Origin: an uncultured Candidatus Saccharibacteria bacterium
GTDB taxonomy: Bacteria > Patescibacteriota > Minisyncoccia > Phycocordibacterales > UBA3531
DNA length: 64,000 nucleotides
Reading direction: 5' to 3'
NCBI GenBank assembly: GCA_964361405.1
Contig: CAYIAA010000004.1
Location: 10,508-74,507, forward strand
In this document: in pieces, positions 4,145-11,808 of the stretch
Numbering within the stretch: the stretch's first letter is position 1
Layout: every line of letters starts with the position of its first letter
The notes under the pieces: model-generated
Database searches by the model: none
Told to the model about the DNA's origin: nothing
The model's input: the letters and a program-made list of their open reading frames with translations, nothing else
Made by a program: the position numbers and the translations under genes

Positions 4145-5263
4145 ATGAACAAACTTTTCGTTTTCGCATTATTGGGCGCCGTCGCGATGTTACCCGCGCT
4201 TGCCCTTGCGGCAGATGTGCGGGTGGGGGAACAACCTTCAATAGGTGCTGGGGAACGGATTACTGACGATGTGTATATCGCCGGTGGTTCGGTCTCAAGC
4301 TCTGGCGTAATTTTCGGCGATCTCATCGCCGGCGGGGGAAATATTGTGGTGAGCGGGAGTGTTGGTGGTGATCTCATGGCAGGAGGCGGCAGTGTTATTG
4401 TTATCTCAAATATCCCCGATGATGTGCGTGTCGGTGGCGGGAATATTGTTATTCAAGGCACAGTTGGAGGAGACCTTCTTGTCGGCGGAGGACAGGTGCA
4501 TATTAGTTCTTCTCGCGTCGGAGGAGACGTTATCGCCGGTGGAGGGCTCATTCGGATTGATGCGGCTGTGGGCGGTGATATCTTGGCGGGCGGTGGTGAG
4601 GTCTATCTGAACGGACCCATTACCGGAAGTGTGAAAGTGAAAGCGGACAAGCTCACCTTGGGAAAGAATGCCGTGATTTCTGGGGACATTACCTACAGTG
4701 CCAAGAAAGAAATGACCTTGGAAGAAGGAGCGGTAGTACGCGGCGAAATCAAATTTGAACCGCGAAAAGAGATGAAAGCCGGAGCCAATGTACTCGCATT
4801 CCTCGGTTTGGGCAAACTTGCGGCGCTTCTTGCATGCGCTCTCTTAATCGGTCTCATTTTCCGCCGTTACGCGCGGGAGATTGTAGGACTTGTGACTCGG
4901 AGCCCGCTTACCGAGCTCGGGAGAGGACTCGTGATTGCCATCGTGCTTCCTGTCCTATCAGTCTTCCTCTTGATCACGGTTGTTGGTATCCCACTCGGCA
5001 TCATCGGCCTCGTCAGTTTCGTCGGAGCATCGCTCTTCGTATGGATTCTCGCGCCGATTATTCTCGGCAGTGTCGTGTACCGCTTTATTACGAAGCGTGA
5101 TACTTATGAAGTGTCGTGGACGACAATACTTCTCGGCGTGGTTCTCTATTCTATCCTCAGCTTTATTCCCATTCTCGGGTGGATAGTGCAGTGTGGTCTT
5201 ATATTTGCCACTCTCGGTGCCGCGGTCAAGTTGAAGTGGTCTATCGTGAAAGAGTGGAGATAA
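4145..5263 (+). CDS. Beta-helical repeat membrane protein: signal peptide, ~10-residue GGGxVxVxGxVGGDLxA repeats (bactofilin / polymer-forming-cytoskeletal-like or adhesin-like beta-helix), and a C-terminal polytopic membrane domain.
   Basis: Signal-like N-terminus [22 protein letters not shown]. At least nine tandem GGD/GGG repeats follow, then four hydrophobic helices at the C-terminus. Confidence 0.6.
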
Positions 5264-5342
5264 TTATTCCGTCATTTTTTTCCGGACTTACATCCTGATC
5301 GGCATTCTGATTGCGGCGCTTTTTGCGCTCACACTTTTTCTC

Positions 5343-5831
5343 ATGGGGCAAGAACCCATCTGCGAATGCGGGTATATTAAGCTTTGGCACGGTGTGACGA
5401 TGAGTTCGGAGAATTCCCAGCATATCTCCGACTGGTACACGTTCTCGCACATTATCCACGGCTTTTTCTTCTACTGGGTCCTTTCACTTTTCGCCCCGCG
5501 GATGCCAATCGGGGCGCGTTTTATTGTTGCACTTCTCGCCGAAACCTCGTGGGAGATTTTCGAGAATACTGATTTCATAATCAACCGCTACCGCGAGACA
5601 ACCATATCGCTTGATTACTACGGTGATTCCGTTATCAATTCCGTCGGCGATGTCATTGCGAGTGTTTTCGGATTCGTCCTCGCTCACCGCTTGCCCGTGT
5701 GGGTTGTTGTCGCTGCCGCGATTGTAATGGAGGCAGGGGTGGGATACGCGATTCGCGACAATTTGACGCTTAATATCATTATGCTGATCCAGCCATTCGA
5801 TTCGATTAGGGTGTGGCAGGGTGGTGGGTGA
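5343..5831 (+). CDS. Membrane protein resembling the UPF0314/DUF2585 family (ICxCGY...SENSQ...DWYTFSH..HG motif, C-terminal WQGGG). It may have an upstream N-terminal extension without a canonical start (see findings).
   Basis: The conserved-looking motif string and three or four hydrophobic helices are present. The family assignment is from memory and should be confirmed by HMM search. Confidence 0.55.
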
Positions 5832-5846
5832 TAAAATAGATACACC

Positions 5847-8033
5847 ATGAACCGCGCAGAAAAAAACATGCACTGTGTGTGCGGCAAGACCTGCATTATA
5901 TGCAGCGCGGAGGAACTTGCCGTTACCTGTGGTTGCGGTATTGAGGCCAAACAGCACGAATACAATCTTAAGAAAGATTCATGGCATCAGGAACACAGCG
6001 GGCACGGAGTAGAGCACTTGAGTCACCGCGATCACGAAGCCGCCATGACGAGTCCGCGCTTGGCAAAACAGATGGAGGCGGATATGCGTCGGCGGTTTTT
6101 CATTTCTCTCGCGCTTACCATTCCTATTGTCCTTTATTCGCCGATGGGAGAAATGCTTTTCGGTATTTCACTCTGGTTTCCTTTTCCGAAAAATTCGTTT
6201 TTGTTTCTTCTGACCACACCCATAGTGTTTTGGACGGGCTCAATTTTTATCACTGGCACGTATTATTCGTTGAAAGCTCGCACGCTCAACATGACGGTCT
6301 TGGTCGCAACGGGAATTTTGGCGGCGTATCTTGGCAGTATCGCTCTCACTTTTACTGGTGGAGGCGAAGTATTCTACGAAGCGGCTGCGATGCTCGTAAC
6401 GTTTGTGCTTTTTGGACACTGGATGGAAATGAAATCTCGCCGCGGGACGTCGGATTCTCTCCGTGCGCTCTTTGATCTCGTGCCTCCGCAAGCGCGAGTG
6501 ATGCGCAATGGAAAAGAAATTTTAATCGCGAGCACGGAGGTGGTGCAAGGCGACAGTGTAGTATTAAAACCCGGCGACAAAGTGCCCGTTGACGGCATTG
6601 TAACCCTCGGAGAAACAGCGGTTGATGAGGCACTTGTTACCGGCGAATCACTCCCAGTTTCAAAGAAAATCGGTGATAAAGTCATTGGCGGTTCAATCAA
6701 TCAAAATGGAGCAATACAATTCCTCGCTACAAAAGTTGGATCAGATACGGTACTCGCCTCAATCATTAGAATGGTGGAAACGGCGCAGAATTCCAAAGCG
6801 CCCGGACAGCGAATTGCGGACAAAGCGGCAGCATGGCTTGTCGTGCTCGCGGTCGCGTCGGGTATAGCCGCATTTTTCGGATGGTACACCATTGTGGGCG
6901 CGACATTCGTTGTCGCTCTCACGTTTGCCATTTCGACTGTCGTCATCGCGTGTCCAGATGCACTTGGACTCGCCACCCCGACGGCGGTTGCGGTGGGAAC
7001 AGGGCTTGGCGCGAAGCACGGCATTCTCATTAAAAATGCGGCGACACTTGAGGGCGCGTCAAAAATCAATGCCATTGTGCTTGATAAAACGGGGACGTTG
7101 ACGGAGGGGAAGCCGAAAGTTACCGAAGTTATCACCACGGGAAATATGTCGGAGGAAACCCTTCTCCAGTATGCCGCAAGCGTTGAAACAAAATCGAGCC
7201 ATCCCTTGTCGGCGGCAATCCTCGATGAGGCGAAAAAAAGAGGCATTTCTCTCCTTGCGACGGAAAATTTTCAATCACTTTCGGGATTAGGACTTGAGGG
7301 TGTTGTTGGCGGAAAAAACGTTCTTGTTGGCACCGAGCGATTGTTGCGTGACCGCGGTATTGACACGGAGAATATGAGAGGAGCAATCGAGAAACTTTTG
7401 GCGGGCGGTAAAACATTGAGTATTATTGCCGTTGACAATCTCGCCGTAGGCATCATCGGCATTTCCGACGAAGTGCGCGGAACATCAAAAAAGACGGTAA
7501 CGAAACTGAAGGAGCTCGGCATTGAAACAGCGATGATTACCGGGGACAATAAAAAAATTGCGGAAGCGGTGGGGGTAGAGCTCGGTATTGACCGTGTATT
7601 CGCGGAAGTCATGCCGAAAGACAAAGCGAGCTTCGTGAAGAAATTACAAGACGAAGGAAAATTCGTCGCGATGGTGGGGGACGGCGTGAATGATGCGCCC
7701 GCCCTCGCGCAATCGGATATCGGCATCGCGATTGGTGCCGGAACGGATGTGGCGATTGAAACGGCAAGCATTGTACTCATGAAGTCCGACCCGTATGACA
7801 TTGTCGCGGCGATCCGTTTGAGCAAGGCGACTGTCCGTAAAATGAAGCAGAATCTGTTTTGGGCGGCAATCTATAACGTGCTCGCCATTCCGATTGCGGC
7901 CGGTGTTTTTTATTCCTCGCTCGGGTGGACTCTGCGGCCTGAAATTGCGGCCCTTCTTATGTCGGCATCGTCCATTATCGTCGCCACAAATGCCGTTCTT
8001 TTGAAGCGGGTGGAATCTGGATTAACTGAATAA
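5847..8033 (+). CDS. copA: Heavy-metal-translocating P1B-type ATPase, CopA-like (Cu+ signature YN in TM7 and MSASS in TM8). It has a non-canonical CPD transmembrane motif and a Cys/His-rich N-terminus.
   Basis: DKTGTLT phosphorylation motif, TGDN, GDGVNDAP hinge, and the CPD+ALGLATP TM6 motif. The N-terminus reads MHCVCGKTCIICSAEELAVTCGCG followed by the His-rich stretch HQEHSGHGVEHLSHRDHE. Confidence 0.9.
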   Translation: MNRAEKNMHCVCGKTCIICSAEELAVTCGCGIEAKQHEYNLKKDSWHQEHSGHGVEHLSHRDHEAAMTSPRLAKQMEADMRRRFFISLALTIPIVLYSPMGEMLFGISLWFPFPKNSFLFLLTTPIVFWTGSIFITGTYYSLKARTLNMTVLVATGILAAYLGSIALTFTGGGEVFYEAAAMLVTFVLFGHWMEMKSRRGTSDSLRALFDLVPPQARVMRNGKEILIASTEVVQGDSVVLKPGDKVPVDGIVTLGETAVDEALVTGESLPVSKKIGDKVIGGSINQNGAIQFLATKVGSDTVLASIIRMVETAQNSKAPGQRIADKAAAWLVVLAVASGIAAFFGWYTIVGATFVVALTFAISTVVIACPDALGLATPTAVAVGTGLGAKHGILIKNAATLEGASKINAIVLDKTGTLTEGKPKVTEVITTGNMSEETLLQYAASVETKSSHPLSAAILDEAKKRGISLLATENFQSLSGLGLEGVVGGKNVLVGTERLLRDRGIDTENMRGAIEKLLAGGKTLSIIAVDNLAVGIIGISDEVRGTSKKTVTKLKELGIETAMITGDNKKIAEAVGVELGIDRVFAEVMPKDKASFVKKLQDEGKFVAMVGDGVNDAPALAQSDIGIAIGAGTDVAIETASIVLMKSDPYDIVAAIRLSKATVRKMKQNLFWAAIYNVLAIPIAAGVFYSSLGWTLRPEIAALLMSASSIIVATNAVLLKRVESGLTE

Positions 8034-8533
8034 TGGTATTGTGGTACACTGACAATATGGATGCTTTTTCGAGGATATCACTGTTTTTTCTCCGCATTGC
8101 AATGGGCTCTTTCCTACTCTACGCAGGACTCACCAAGGTGCTCGACCCATCATGGTCGGCCGCGGTTTATCTCGGGGGAACCAAGACATTTCAGAGTTTC
8201 TATCAGTTGCTCCTCGCTCCGAATGTGCTTCCAGCAGTCAATTTTTTAAATGAATGGGGGATGACGCTCCTCGGCCTTTCACTCATCCTCGGGATATTTG
8301 TGAGATTGAGCGGAATCGCAGGGGCACTCCTTATGGTACTTTACTATTTTCCGATACTTGATTTTCCATACCCGAACCCCCCTTCGGATATCGTAGACGA
8401 GCATATTATCTACGCGCTCGCATTCTTAGTACTTGCCGCATCTCGGGCAGGACGTGTGTGGGGCCTTGAGAACTGGTGCGTGGGTTTGCCAATATGCTCT
8501 CGGTACCCTCGATTCCGTAGTTTACTAGGTTAA
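8033..8533 (+). CDS. DoxX family membrane protein
   Basis: FLLRIAMGSFLLYAGLTKVLDP is a typical DoxX N-terminal motif. Four TM helices. The start overlaps the copA stop (ATAATGG). Confidence 0.7.
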   Translation: MVLWYTDNMDAFSRISLFFLRIAMGSFLLYAGLTKVLDPSWSAAVYLGGTKTFQSFYQLLLAPNVLPAVNFLNEWGMTLLGLSLILGIFVRLSGIAGALLMVLYYFPILDFPYPNPPSDIVDEHIIYALAFLVLAASRAGRVWGLENWCVGLPICSRYPRFRSLLG

Positions 8534-8543
8534 TATTACATCT

Positions 8544-9245
8544 ATGAAAAAAATCATTGGTATTGTGCTCCCTGTCCTCGCATTCTTCGTGTTTTTGATA
8601 TCAGTAGCCGATGCACAGATGATGCTGCGCGGGGGTTTTCAATTGGAGCAAGATTCAACGTGGGGGGAAATCGTTGAGCACACGAAGGAAGAAGAAGCCG
8701 AGGGTGCCACCCTCTGGGAAAAACTGCAGAGCGGGGAACTTTCCTGCGCCGCACTCACGGCTGAAAACTTTGAAGCGCTGGGAGAGTATTTTATGGGCAC
8801 CATGATGGATGAGGGGCATGCGTCGATGAACGCGATGCTCATCCAGATGATGGGTGAGGACGGAGAAGAGGCGATGCACGAGTCAATGGGCAGACGTTTG
8901 AGCGGATGCGACCCCGATGCGGTTATTCCCGGGAGCGGGATCGGTTTTATGCCGATGATGAATATGATGGGAGGATGGTCGGGTTTTGGAGGATTCGGAC
9001 CAATGAGTCCGTTGAGTTCGTGGATGACTAGCAACTGGACCGGCGTCGGATTTTTTGGGGGCCTCCTCGCCATTCTCTGGTGGGCCGTCATCATCGCGGG
9101 TATCGTGGCTGTCGTGAAGTGGGTAGCACACCGCGGGGAGCGGCAATCGGGAGAATCTCCGCTTGAGATTCTCGGCGCACGTTACGCCAAGGGGGAAATT
9201 ACAAAACAGGAGTTCGACGAAAGAAAAAAAGATTTACAGCAATAG
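8544..9245 (+). CDS. Signal-peptide protein with a Met/His-rich putative metal-binding ectodomain, one TM helix and a C-terminal SHOCT domain
   Basis: Signal peptide MKKIIGIVLPVLAFFVFLISVADA. Met-rich motifs MMDEGHASMNAMLIQMMGEDGEEAMHESM and GFMPMMNMMGGW. TM helix GLLAILWWAVIIAGIVAVV. C-terminal ILGARYAKGEITKQEFDERKKDL fits the SHOCT consensus. Confidence 0.6.
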   Translation: MKKIIGIVLPVLAFFVFLISVADAQMMLRGGFQLEQDSTWGEIVEHTKEEEAEGATLWEKLQSGELSCAALTAENFEALGEYFMGTMMDEGHASMNAMLIQMMGEDGEEAMHESMGRRLSGCDPDAVIPGSGIGFMPMMNMMGGWSGFGGFGPMSPLSSWMTSNWTGVGFFGGLLAILWWAVIIAGIVAVVKWVAHRGERQSGESPLEILGARYAKGEITKQEFDERKKDLQQ

Positions 9246-9335
9246 CCGTACCTATTTCATCGTTACCGCGCCACGCCTGCCATAATATCTCGCTGTGGGG
9301 TACAATGGATGCATTAGTACAGTAACGTTGTTTCT

Positions 9336-9527
9336 ATGATGAAATTATCATGCACGGATTTGAATCCGAGTTCGGAGTGCCGGTACGAGGCGACCGGCGA
9401 AAATGCGAAAGAGGTTGCGGTGAAGATGATGGCGCACGCCAAGGCGGAGCACCCGGAGGATATTGAGAAAATGGGGATGGATGATACGGCAATGCGGGCG
9501 ATGTTCGAGACCAAGGTCCACGAATAA
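9336..9527 (+). CDS. DUF1059 / COG5466-like predicted small metal-binding protein
   Basis: 63 aa with C..C near the N-terminus (SCTDLNPSSEC) and H...H (AHAKAEHPED). This resembles DUF1059 proteins. The assignment is from memory. Confidence 0.5.
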   Translation: MMKLSCTDLNPSSECRYEATGENAKEVAVKMMAHAKAEHPEDIEKMGMDDTAMRAMFETKVHE

Positions 9528-9550
9528 CTCCAACATTTCCTTCTAATGGG

Positions 9551-10045
9551 ATGGATATCGCAACACTTATATCTTTTGACGATGCGGTGAGTGTATTCGT
9601 CCGCACTATTCTCATTTTTTTCTTCGCATTCGTCATCCTCCGCTTCCTCGGGCGGCGACACCTTTCGCACCTCACCTACCTTGACCTTCTTCTCGTTATC
9701 GGGCTCGGCTCGGCCGTAGGGGACGTGATGATTTACGGTGAAAATACGGTCCATTTCCTTGCTTCGGCAATTGCCATCCTCGCTGTTGGTCTCTCAATCA
9801 AAGTCCTCGACGAACTCTCGTCGCGTTCCAAGCGGGTAAGTTTCCTCGTCACCGGGACAGCCCGGCTCATTATTGAAGATGGGAAAATACTATCCGACAT
9901 GCTTGAGAAAGAAGATATGACTGAAGCGGAGTTAATGTCTCTTCTTCGCGAGAAGGGTGTGAGTTCGATTGGAAATGTGAAGCGCGCCTACATCGAAATC
10001 GATGGTGAGGTGAGTATTATTTTCAACCGGAAGCATCAGGGTTAG
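9551..10045 (+). CDS. DUF421 (YetF/YdfS-like) membrane protein
   Basis: An N-terminal two-TM region with RRHLSHLTYLDLLLVIGLG, and a C-terminal soluble domain typical of DUF421. Confidence 0.7.
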   Translation: MDIATLISFDDAVSVFVRTILIFFFAFVILRFLGRRHLSHLTYLDLLLVIGLGSAVGDVMIYGENTVHFLASAIAILAVGLSIKVLDELSSRSKRVSFLVTGTARLIIEDGKILSDMLEKEDMTEAELMSLLREKGVSSIGNVKRAYIEIDGEVSIIFNRKHQG

Positions 10046-10086
10046 GCGAATTCAGACGATTGGCAGTTAAGAAGTTTTCCTGATCC

Positions 10087-10623
10087 TTATCTATAGCGCA
10101 AGACGAGGTAGTGTCTTGCGATTTGAGCAACCGCAATACTCGCTACCAGGGCACCCAGATAAACCGCCATAATCTCTATATAGGAATAGGGAACTCTGTG
10201 GAGCGATCCCAGAATAATGGCGTATATCCACGAAGCGGAAGATATTCCTCCGCTTACGAAGATAGCCACATTTGTTACGGCGCGATTCGCAAGGAGTGAG
10301 GGGATATGTTTCAGATGAAAATAGATGCCATTTAGTATAATCACACCCACAACAGAAATTTTGGCGAGAAACTTGCTTGAACCAATGTAGTAATTAGGGT
10401 CGGTGAGAAAAAGTCCGATACCCGATATGACGAGTATGGTGAGTCCGATCCAGACCGAGGAACTCGCGAGAATGAGAAATCGTTTTTCAGTTGCGGTGAT
10501 TTTTTTATCCCGTACGCTCTCCCAAAATATCCGATCGGCCGCGAACGCGCCACCCGCGCCGATCGCGACACCGATAATGTGGAGAGTCGTGTAAAATATT
10601 TTGAGATTGAAGAATATATCCAT
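10087..10623 (-). CDS. Hypothetical polytopic membrane protein (5 TM). Possibly CopD-like, but not established.
   Basis: 178 aa and highly hydrophobic. It is the only minus-strand gene within the metal cluster. Confidence 0.45.
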   Translation of the reverse strand: MDIFFNLKIFYTTLHIIGVAIGAGGAFAADRIFWESVRDKKITATEKRFLILASSSVWIGLTILVISGIGLFLTDPNYYIGSSKFLAKISVVGVIILNGIYFHLKHIPSLLANRAVTNVAIFVSGGISSASWIYAIILGSLHRVPYSYIEIMAVYLGALVASIAVAQIARHYLVLRYR

Positions 10624-10746
10624 GATAAAACAGACTTGAGTGTATCATGGCGAGCGTGGCTTGTACTACTCGGCTTAACCGCCTATACTGTCTCTCGTGG
10701 GCACGGGAGACGGCGCAATACATTAGCAATTTTAACATTTGGAAAT

Positions 10747-11133
10747 ATGGCTGAAATCACATTTTTAATTGGCCGCATTCTCTTTGGAGGATATTTCTTT
10801 ATGAATGGGATGAATCACTTTCTGAAGCGTGGGGCGATGACGGGCTATGCAACCTCAAAAGGGGTGCCGATGCCGGAAGTCATGGTTTTGTTTTCCGGAC
10901 TTCTTATCATACTCGGCGGTCTTGGGGTTGTGCTCGGAGTTCAAATTGAAATAGCTCTCGCACTCATCATTCTTTTTCTTGTTCCGGTGACATTGAAAAT
11001 GCACGCTTTTTGGAGTATTTCTGATCCGCAAGCGAAGATGGGTGAGATGGTGAACTTTATGAAGAACACCGCACTCATTGGAGCGACACTGATGCTGTAT
11101 TCTGTTTGTGCCGTCTGGCAATCATTTCTCTAA
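10747..11133 (+). CDS. DoxX family membrane protein. The start is trimmed to ATG 10747 because the track ORF 10579 overlaps the minus-strand gene.
   Basis: ILFGGYFFMNGMNHF... matches the DoxX pattern. ~128 aa with four TM helices. Confidence 0.65.
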   Translation: MAEITFLIGRILFGGYFFMNGMNHFLKRGAMTGYATSKGVPMPEVMVLFSGLLIILGGLGVVLGVQIEIALALIILFLVPVTLKMHAFWSISDPQAKMGEMVNFMKNTALIGATLMLYSVCAVWQSFL

Positions 11134-11145
11134 ACCATTAATTAT

Positions 11146-11808
11146 TTGAGTAGTTTTGTGGTAGATAATACCCCCTTTGCGCCGGAAACTCCCGGAAAGA
11201 AAAACGATTATTTCATGAAGCGTGAGGAACGTGAACGTGCGGAGCGGGCGCGGGAACGAGCACGAATGGGGAAGCGGACACTGCGCTACTTTCTCATAGG
11301 GGTAGTTGTGCTTGGAGCCATATTCATTTTGTATCGTGCGCTTGAGAGAGGAACTCCAGCGAGTACGGACCAGAGCATCGAATACCCCATACAAGGGAGA
11401 GAGCACATTGAAGTTGGATCTACCCATCCGCCTTATAATTCAAATCCGCCGTCTTCGGGGTGGCACTATGAGGAACCAGCAAAGACAGGTTTTAGAGAAA
11501 AAGAGATTCCTGATGAACATCTGGTGCACTCTCTCGAGCACGGCGATATCTGGATTGCATACCATCCACGAGTGGTGAGCGAGGTGAAGGAGGCGCTCCA
11601 AGAGTTCGCTGGCAGTAAAGTTGTCGTGACCTCGAGATTGGCGAATGACACGGATATAGCGCTCGTCGCGTGGGGACGGGTGGATAGTTTTAGTCTCGAT
11701 CCATCCGGATTTTCCGCCACGACTACAACGCGGATTAACGATTTCATCACACGTTACGTAAATAAAGGACCCGAGCAGATTCCGGCGGGAATGAGTGAGG
11801 GGATTTAG
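11146..11808 (+). CDS. DUF3105-like secreted/membrane-anchored protein
   Basis: N-terminal TM YFLIGVVVLGAIFILY. The conserved-looking HSLEHGDIWIAY motif is characteristic of DUF3105 (assignment from memory). Confidence 0.5.
   Translation: MSSFVVDNTPFAPETPGKKNDYFMKREERERAERARERARMGKRTLRYFLIGVVVLGAIFILYRALERGTPASTDQSIEYPIQGREHIEVGSTHPPYNSNPPSSGWHYEEPAKTGFREKEIPDEHLVHSLEHGDIWIAYHPRVVSEVKEALQEFAGSKVVVTSRLANDTDIALVAWGRVDSFSLDPSGFSATTTTRINDFITRYVNKGPEQIPAGMSEGI

Follow-up and report, generated by a model that had tools for sequence, protein, structure and literature searches.

A CPD-motif P1B-type ATPase of CopB-like lineage and its neighbouring Met/His-rich SHOCT protein in an uncultured groundwater Patescibacteria bacterium

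The window analysed here is a 64,000-nucleotide stretch of contig CAYIAA010000004.1 (GenBank assembly GCA_964361405.1) from an uncultured bacterium of the Patescibacteria, or candidate phyla radiation (CPR). The subject of this report is the gene string at positions 5343–11133 of the window, which contains the gene for a 728-amino acid P1B-type ATPase (5847..8033, + strand) with a CPD motif in its membrane domain and, a short distance 3′ of it, the gene for a Met/His-rich membrane-anchored protein with a SHOCT domain (8544..9245, +). The region was scanned with Pfam (hmmscan) and NCBIfam profiles, and the genes and motifs were found exactly where the original prediction, which had read the string as a cluster of metal-handling genes around a CopA-like ATPase, had put them. 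As described below, the reading of these genes changes in several respects.

The pump has Pfam E1-E2_ATPase and Hydrolase matches and passes the NCBIfam models TIGR01511 (‘copper-translocating P-type ATPase’, 571 bits against a cut-off of 397) and TIGR01525 (588 bits against 346); with the ZntA models, its scores stay far under the cut-offs. If translation starts at 5868 instead, the protein has 721 amino acids. Its best PDB matches are the CopA proteins of Archaeoglobus fulgidus and Legionella pneumophila, which align to residues 101–721 with an E-value of about 1e-159. The catalytic motifs D413-K-T-G-T417, T265-G-E-S268, G611-D-G-V-N-D-A-P618 and H452-P453 (the HP motif) are invariant in the alignment, and the last two transmembrane (TM) helices carry the predicted copper-type signatures Y676-N677 (7872–7877) and M705-S706-A707-S708-S709 (7959–7973). 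The marks of ZntA/P1B-2 pumps, a Lys in TM7 and the Asp of DxG in TM8, were not found in these helices, which read WAAIYNVLAIP and LLMSASSIIV, respectively, and the SPC and HEGxT motifs of Co pumps are absent from the protein. The CPD motif itself, C369-P370-D371, is encoded at 6951..6959 (+) within the TM helix where other P1B pumps have CPC or CPH, and D371 aligns to the second Cys of CPC in A. fulgidus CopA in the PDB sequence search. The AlphaFold2 (AF2) model is consistent with a P1B core of eight TM helices and predicts a helix break at residues 368–370, where CPD lies.

The rarity of CPD among characterised pumps is the only thing that would speak for a sequencing or assembly error of CPC, or for a gene in decay, and we put the chance of either at practically nil. 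Four independent assemblies contain the identical protein (ERR3858113, ERR3858114 and ERR3858115 in Logan, and ERZ1292627 in ENA, the last being the Hainich groundwater assembly Hain_H51, where the gene lies on a 195-kb contig). The motif is present in 120 out of 120 closest database homologues, which are 64–100% identical to the pump and come almost entirely from Patescibacteria/CPR metagenome-assembled genomes, and in each of 80 CPD-ATPase genome loci, which were retrieved from species-representative genomes with 10-kb flanks where available. Furthermore, every catalytic motif is intact and a change from GAT to TGT takes two base substitutions. This recurrence across assemblies, homologues and loci, together with the intact motifs, excludes both the sequencing-error and the pseudogene readings. 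CPD is thus a fixed trait of a large subgroup that had already been noticed: it is non-canonical relative to every characterised P1B pump, as predicted, but it is not new, having been reported in 2017 in the ‘atypical’ Cu-ATPases of Rhizobiales (cluster VIc, with members in Xanthobacter autotrophicus, in Nitrobacter hamburgensis and also in Bradyrhizobium sp.; PMC5552934). As a candidate for a charge that compensates D371, R697 is enriched in the clade (96%) but is absent from two CPD representatives and present in one CPH protein, and there is no strict coupling between the two residues.

The placement of the pump among P1B ATPases departs from the CopA-like assignment made earlier. When 1.84 billion representatives at 50% identity were searched, seven CPD proteins and one SPD protein came out on top of the 150 best matches, the rest comprising 133 CPC proteins, seven CPH proteins and two without a motif call. 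In a neighbour-joining tree of 52 sequences (646 columns, 100 bootstraps), CPD and CPH proteins together split from CPC proteins in 100/100 bootstraps, and the CPR CPD pumps form a clade of their own with the same support, nested beside non-CPR CPD proteins that have a degenerate HMA-like domain and His/Met repeats. A set of residues, namely S98, H191 and M195 of the GHWxEM motif, G200, L331, A335, G339, M666 and A680, is common to CPD and CPH proteins and missing in CPC proteins. The segment following the CPx motif reads ALGLATP in CPD proteins, as it does in CopA, and ALGLA(I/V)P in CPH proteins. Because of the fully supported split and the shared derived residues, the sequence places the pump in the CopB-like (former P1B-3) lineage rather than with CopA. 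NCBI and JGI name its relatives ‘copper-translocating P-type ATPase’.

The N-terminus of the pump contains a Cys-rich module at residues 10–39 (CvCgktCiiCsAEeLaVtCGCgiEAKQhEY; 5874..5963, +) that recurs in relatives. The original prediction had described it as a cluster of seven Cys; it is indeed a conserved module and not noise, but the stretch MHCVCGKTCIICSAEELAVTCGCG holds six Cys (C10, C12, C16, C19, C28, C30), and only the first four of these (CxCx3Cx2C) are invariant among relatives. This Cys4 module of about 30 residues follows the pattern C-x-C-x3-C-x2-C, A-E-x-L-x-V, [C/S/A/V]-G-[C/S], x-x-E-A-K-Q-[Y/F]-E-Y and is present in 38 of the 120 homologues. A hidden Markov model of it matched 17 of the 7439 open reading frames (ORFs) of the loci, and all 17 are CPD ATPases. 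Pfam contains no model for the module, and a relaxed search (E ≤ 10) gave noise only. An HMA domain with its GMxCxxC motif is missing, as had been predicted, with no Pfam HMA match in the region at E ≤ 0.01 or in the pump N-terminus at E ≤ 10. Other clade members carry the HMBD zinc-ribbon (PF19335; YTCPMHPE...CPxCGM) in place of the Cys4 module, or both in tandem, and the N-terminus of the CPD clade is highly modular. In some homologues, such as P0097 and P0102, the Cys4 module is preceded by a further Cys-rich unit (YRCPECGFQY...CEAWCKAHHTCNIE) with a weak match to DUF7128 (E-value 0.019).

In the window pump, the Cys4 module is followed by a His-rich stretch (H47–H63) and then by a Met-rich pre-membrane segment, HEAAMTSPRLAKQMEADMRRRF, which together occupy 5985..6095 (+) and are conserved in the clade. 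At least 90% of its members have H50, H53, H60, H63, M67, M76 and M80, and the three Met residues are specific to the CPD clade. The N-terminus as a whole would be a modular cytoplasmic region with a metal-binding or regulatory role.

The Met/His-rich protein encoded at 8544..9245 consists of a signal peptide (residues 1–24), a helical ectodomain (about 40–130), a Gly/Met-rich linker, a TM helix (169–201) and a SHOCT domain (206–231) that matches PF09851 with 38.9 bits against a cut-off of 27 (E-value 6e-10). The signal peptide, which ends in ADA-Q, and the basic residues after the TM helix predict that the ectodomain lies outside and the SHOCT domain inside the cell. It is one of at least 452 members of a family, all annotated by SHOCT alone. 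C68, C122, H92, H112, M84, M95, M115 and M138 are invariant in the family alignments, and many further Met are nearly so. AF2 predicts residues 40–130 to form a helical hairpin with a predicted local distance difference test (pLDDT) score above 90, followed by a disordered Gly/Met linker, the TM helix and SHOCT helices. A Foldseek search of this model against the PDB returned nothing at E ≤ 0.001 (best E-value 3.6); Pfam has no model for the ectodomain, and relaxed thresholds gave noise only. Judged by these residues, the protein is plausibly an extracytoplasmic metal-binding or buffering protein with a disulfide-capable ectodomain, which sometimes accompanies CopB-type pumps. A SHOCT membrane protein of Haloferax has been reported to be induced by silver (PMC10694973).

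The genomic company of this family was examined in 80 metagenome loci seeded on its members, 49 of which had a flank of at least 4 kb. A DsrE-like gene is found near the Met/His-SHOCT gene in 35 of these loci (adjacent in 29), a DUF302 gene in 14, a P1B ATPase gene in seven (five CPH, one CPC and one CPD, several directly adjacent), and a DoxX gene lies beside it in five. The DsrE-like neighbours are about 108–118 amino acids long (e.g. L130:6891-7217, L090:5682-6008 and L088:1632-1988), and the one in L090 overlaps the Met/His-SHOCT gene. These associations suggest that the DsrE-like, DUF302 and Met/His-SHOCT genes make up a recurrent small module. In the reciprocal survey of the 80 CPD-ATPase loci, Met/His-SHOCT-type relatives occur in 16, DUF302 genes in 12 and DsrE-like genes in five, and short Gly/Met-rich proteins with a TM helix and a SHOCT domain lie near CPD pumps in several. 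The earlier idea of a metal-binding partner for the pump is therefore borne out as regards the invariant Cys2/His2/Met residues and the proximity to CopB-type pumps in both surveys, but the family is only loosely tied to such pumps and is not a dedicated partner of the CPD pump.

Among the remaining products of the string, a DUF2585 (UPF0314) membrane protein of 162 amino acids as called (5343..5831, +; Pfam E-value 3e-74) precedes the pump, and a DoxX-family membrane protein, DoxX1 (8033..8533, +; E-value 3.5e-6), separates the pump from the Met/His-rich protein. The spacing between these four genes is 15, −1 and 10 nucleotides, the DoxX1 start overlapping the ATPase stop codon by one nucleotide, which makes their co-transcription plausible; scans for consensus promoters and terminators, meant to delimit operons, gave match counts equal to the shuffled expectation. 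Further 3′ lie genes for a DUF1059 protein of 63 amino acids (9336..9527, +; E-value 1.9e-6), a YetF/DUF421 membrane protein (9551..10045, +; DUF421 E-value 7e-15, with a YetF_N match as well), a protein with five TM helices on the opposite strand (10087..10623, −) and a second DoxX protein, DoxX2 (E-value 2.7e-9). A CopD-like identity of the five-TM protein was considered and dropped, as only a sub-threshold DUF2214 match was found (E-value 6e-4, 20 bits against a cut-off of 34). DoxX2 most likely occupies 10747..11133 (+), with 128 amino acids beginning MAEITF, which is also the form taken by the gene calls in assemblies L081 and L087; its longest ORF, starting at 10579, shares 45 nucleotides with the 5′ end of the opposite-strand gene.

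The same-strand string continues beyond 11133, the limit of the original prediction, with a DUF3105 protein (11146..11808, +; E-value 3.8e-21) that begins 12 nucleotides after DoxX2 and contains the motif HSLEHGDIW, and then with tgt and uvrB. On the 5′ side of DUF2585 are an ABC transporter, a 281-amino acid protein and, directly adjoining at 4145–5263, a 372-amino acid protein in which GGD(L/I)xAGGG units are repeated and TM helices lie at the C-terminus. This last protein is assigned to DUF8173 by precomputed Pfam matches on other assemblies; our own hmmscan gave no match for it.

Two of these neighbours deserve comment. The DUF2585 protein matches the NCBIfam model PRK00944 with 268 bits (cut-off 241), starting at profile position 34 of 195, so the called ORF is without the first 33 positions. 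Its frame is open upstream (5262–5345) through a TM-like segment that contains no ATG, GTG or TTG, and the 211-amino acid version in the related locus L083 overlaps the start of the ATPase. The window gene may be translated from a non-standard start codon, or its N-terminal part may have been truncated. The DUF2585/UPF0314 family is best known from Proteobacteria. The strong match in this bacterium, together with the absence of the family from 80 other CPR loci, may reflect horizontal acquisition. DUF2585 has been placed in the Lipocone superfamily (cpCone-DUF2585), whose members are predicted lipid head-group enzymes (bioRxiv 10.1101/2025.01.14.632903). For DUF1059, the literature yielded nothing functional and no link to metals.

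Whether the genes from DUF2585 through DoxX2 constitute one dedicated metal-resistance operon with cooperating members, as first proposed, can be judged from their conservation. The same-strand genes and their very short gaps are compatible with such an operon, and so is the presence of DoxX beside Met/His-SHOCT genes mentioned above. The gene order is the same in other assemblies of the species, and the relative L083, whose ATPase is 85% identical, keeps the order from the ABC transporter to DUF421 (ABC transporter, 281-amino acid protein, DUF8173, DUF2585, ATPase, Met-rich protein, DUF1059, DUF421). However, the Met-rich protein of L083 is without SHOCT and the first DoxX is already missing there, and the members fail to co-occur beyond this closest relative: among the 80 CPD-ATPase loci, relatives of DUF2585, DUF1059, YetF and DoxX2 are found in none, of the five-TM protein in one, of DoxX1 in two and of DUF3105 in four. 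The conserved synteny also takes in unrelated flanks (the ABC transporter, tgt and uvrB) and is thus a result of shared recent descent and not of selection for the unit. Furthermore, DUF2585 is a predicted lipid enzyme and no metal function is evidenced here for the DUF2585, DoxX, DUF1059, YetF or five-TM families, so the description of DUF1059 as a small metal-binding protein, and the metal label given to DUF2585, DoxX and DUF421, are supported by no result. Judged by the co-occurrence in related genomes that the original prediction had itself set as a check, the metal-handling reading fails for all but the pump and possibly one neighbour. A single cooperating operon is accordingly improbable in our judgement; DUF2585, the two DoxX proteins, DUF1059, YetF and the five-TM protein are lineage-specific neighbours of the pump, with which they may be co-transcribed.

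The neighbours that do recur in the CPD-ATPase loci are of a different kind. The commonest in CPR genomes is a family of about 318 amino acids without a Pfam match (31 of the 80 loci, e.g. L007:5440-6396), ahead of CsoR-type repressors (17) and multicopper oxidases (16). A DsbD-type membrane protein occurs in 25 loci, a YHS-domain protein in 18 and a redoxin in 14; a second P1B ATPase family is present in 19, and a full-length ORF with CPC and HMA was confirmed in 14 of them. None of these seven families is represented in the cluster of the window. On an unrelated CPR contig (L089:7588-11220), we observed a gyrA-like gene with an intein (Pfam Intein_splicing between two DNA_topoisoIV segments).

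Considering (i) the retention of YN and MxxSS, (ii) the copper-type neighbours of the pump’s relatives and (iii) the precedent that the third CPx residue alone does not make a Cu2+ pump, we think that this CopB-lineage pump of a Patescibacteria bacterium from Hainich groundwater probably exports Cu(I), and possibly Ag(I), from the cytoplasm. The precedent comes from the P1B-3 (CPH) pumps, which, according to PMC10654040 and PMC7558416, were once thought to transport Cu2+ because of their His and are now regarded as Cu(I) transporters and merged into P1B-1 (both citing Purohit 2018). In the mechanism that we envisage, the cytoplasmic N-terminus would capture the metal by means of the Cys4 module, the His-rich stretch and the Met-rich pre-membrane helix. 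The metal would then move to a membrane site formed by C369, D371, Y676, N677, M705, S706 and S709, in which the Asp would fill the position of the His in CopB and of the second Cys in CopA, and would be released outward in a normal E1/E2 phosphorylation cycle, for which the DKTGT, TGES, GDGxNDxP and HP motifs are present. The large size of the clade and its frequent occurrence next to a canonical CPC/HMA CopA suggest a non-redundant role for the pump and not a broken copy.

Several observations weigh against this interpretation. The searchable literature yielded no functional study of a CPD pump and the PDB matches included no CPD-pump structure, and the substrate is one that we infer. Compared with Cys or His, a carboxylate is the harder ligand, and the selectivity could shift with it. 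The pump has no copper sensor, multicopper oxidase or chaperone beside it in the window, and AF2, which modelled the protein without metal, gave residues 1–70 a pLDDT below 50, so that the N-terminal module is not folded with confidence. The tree was built by a distance method from a limited sample of taxa, and monophyly of the CPD proteins was obtained in 50/100 bootstraps, with one protein excluded. Finally, the Met/His-SHOCT family adjoins DsrE-like and DUF302 genes oftener than ATPase genes (35 and 14 against seven of its 80 loci), and three members that were checked individually have no ATPase nearby.

The main rival to Cu(I) export builds on the chemistry of the Asp, which would retune the site to a harder or divalent ion (Cu2+, Zn2+, Cd2+, Pb2+ or Co2+), with the pump operating beside a canonical Cu(I) CopA. 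It draws on the replacement of a thiolate or imidazole by a carboxylate at the ion site, on the full-length CPC and HMA CopA in 14 of the 80 loci, which argues for non-redundancy, and on the age and wide distribution of the CPD clade, which has members outside the CPR. We nevertheless regard it as unlikely, since YN and MxxSS are kept, neither the Lys/Asp of Zn pumps nor the SPC/HEGxT of Co pumps is present, the multicopper oxidase and CsoR-type repressor genes near the relatives are copper-typical, and the analogous argument from CPH to Cu2+ was overturned experimentally (PMC10654040 and PMC7558416). Distinctly less likely still is a pump that chiefly supplies copper to extracytoplasmic cuproenzymes, in the manner of CopA2/CcoI, and does not serve detoxification. 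Cu(I) pumps are known to fall into two functional classes (PMC7558416), 16 of the 80 loci have multicopper oxidase genes near the CPD pump and a separate CopA is frequent, but no cuproenzyme gene was seen near the pump within about 1–13.4 kb of the window, the protein groups with CopB-type and not FixI/CcoI-type pumps, and the nearby CsoR-type repressors are typical of detoxification loci.

A broader proposal, to which we give somewhat more room than to a harder ion but which we still hold only tentatively, is that the CPD pumps of CPR bacteria and their accessories contain two undescribed metal-binding modules, the cytoplasmic Cys4 module (CxCx3Cx2C...EAKQYEY) and the extracytoplasmic Cys2/His2/Met domain. 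The Cys4 module could then deliver or sense metal for a pump whose Cys/Asp site differs in selectivity from both CopA and CopB. The helical domain anchored by a TM helix and SHOCT could likewise represent a new metal (or sulfur/metal) family with DsrE-like, DUF302 and CopB-type partners in bacteria with minimal genomes.

A few membrane residues serve to class P1B pumps and to predict what they transport. The CPD clade is large and conserved, and establishing whether an Asp at this position keeps Cu(I) selectivity would refine the prediction rules in the way the re-evaluation of CopB did for His, and the substrate would also tell how groundwater CPR bacteria cope with copper. In sum, the pump represents a known kind in a variant that is widespread and had been noticed before, and most of the cluster is particular to the lineage; the Cys4 module, which has no Pfam model, and the family of the Met/His ectodomain deserve further study. 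For annotation, the locus teaches that surrounding DUF genes should not be labelled metal-related from adjacency in one lineage.

Among known systems, the pump shares with CopA (P1B-1, CPC; structures 3RFU, 7R0G and 3J09) the catalytic motifs and the copper signatures of the last two TM helices, but it has CPD in place of CPC, is without the HMA (GMxCxxC) domain and falls outside the CPC group in the tree. Its likeness to CopB (former P1B-3, CPH; A. fulgidus and Enterococcus hirae CopB) includes a His-rich N-terminus without HMA, GHWxEM and the other derived residues common only to CPH proteins and the CPD pump, and YN(x)4P and MSxS(S/T) in the last two TM helices; some CPH proteins also bear the HMBD zinc-ribbon known in the CPD clade. 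It differs from CopB in the replacement of the His of CPx by Asp, in MSASS where classical CopB has MSxST, and in the addition of the Cys4 N-terminal module and the Met-rich pre-membrane helix. The Rhizobiales cluster VIc proteins, which were likewise placed beside CopB-type pumps, have CPD in TM6, YN(x)4P in TM7 and an MSxSS-type TM8 as the pump does, but they were described as His-poor and longer (PMC5552934), whereas the window pump, at 728 amino acids, is His-rich, carries the Cys4 module and belongs to a separate CPR clade. The non-CPR CPD representatives found here resemble the Rhizobiales group (e.g. P0123, with MSGSS and a degenerate HMA-like N-terminus). The Met/His-rich protein, for its part, has the C-terminal SHOCT domain after a single TM helix that is seen in small SHOCT membrane proteins (PF09851) and, in addition, a conserved domain of about 90 residues on the extracytoplasmic side in which Cys2/His2/Met are invariant.

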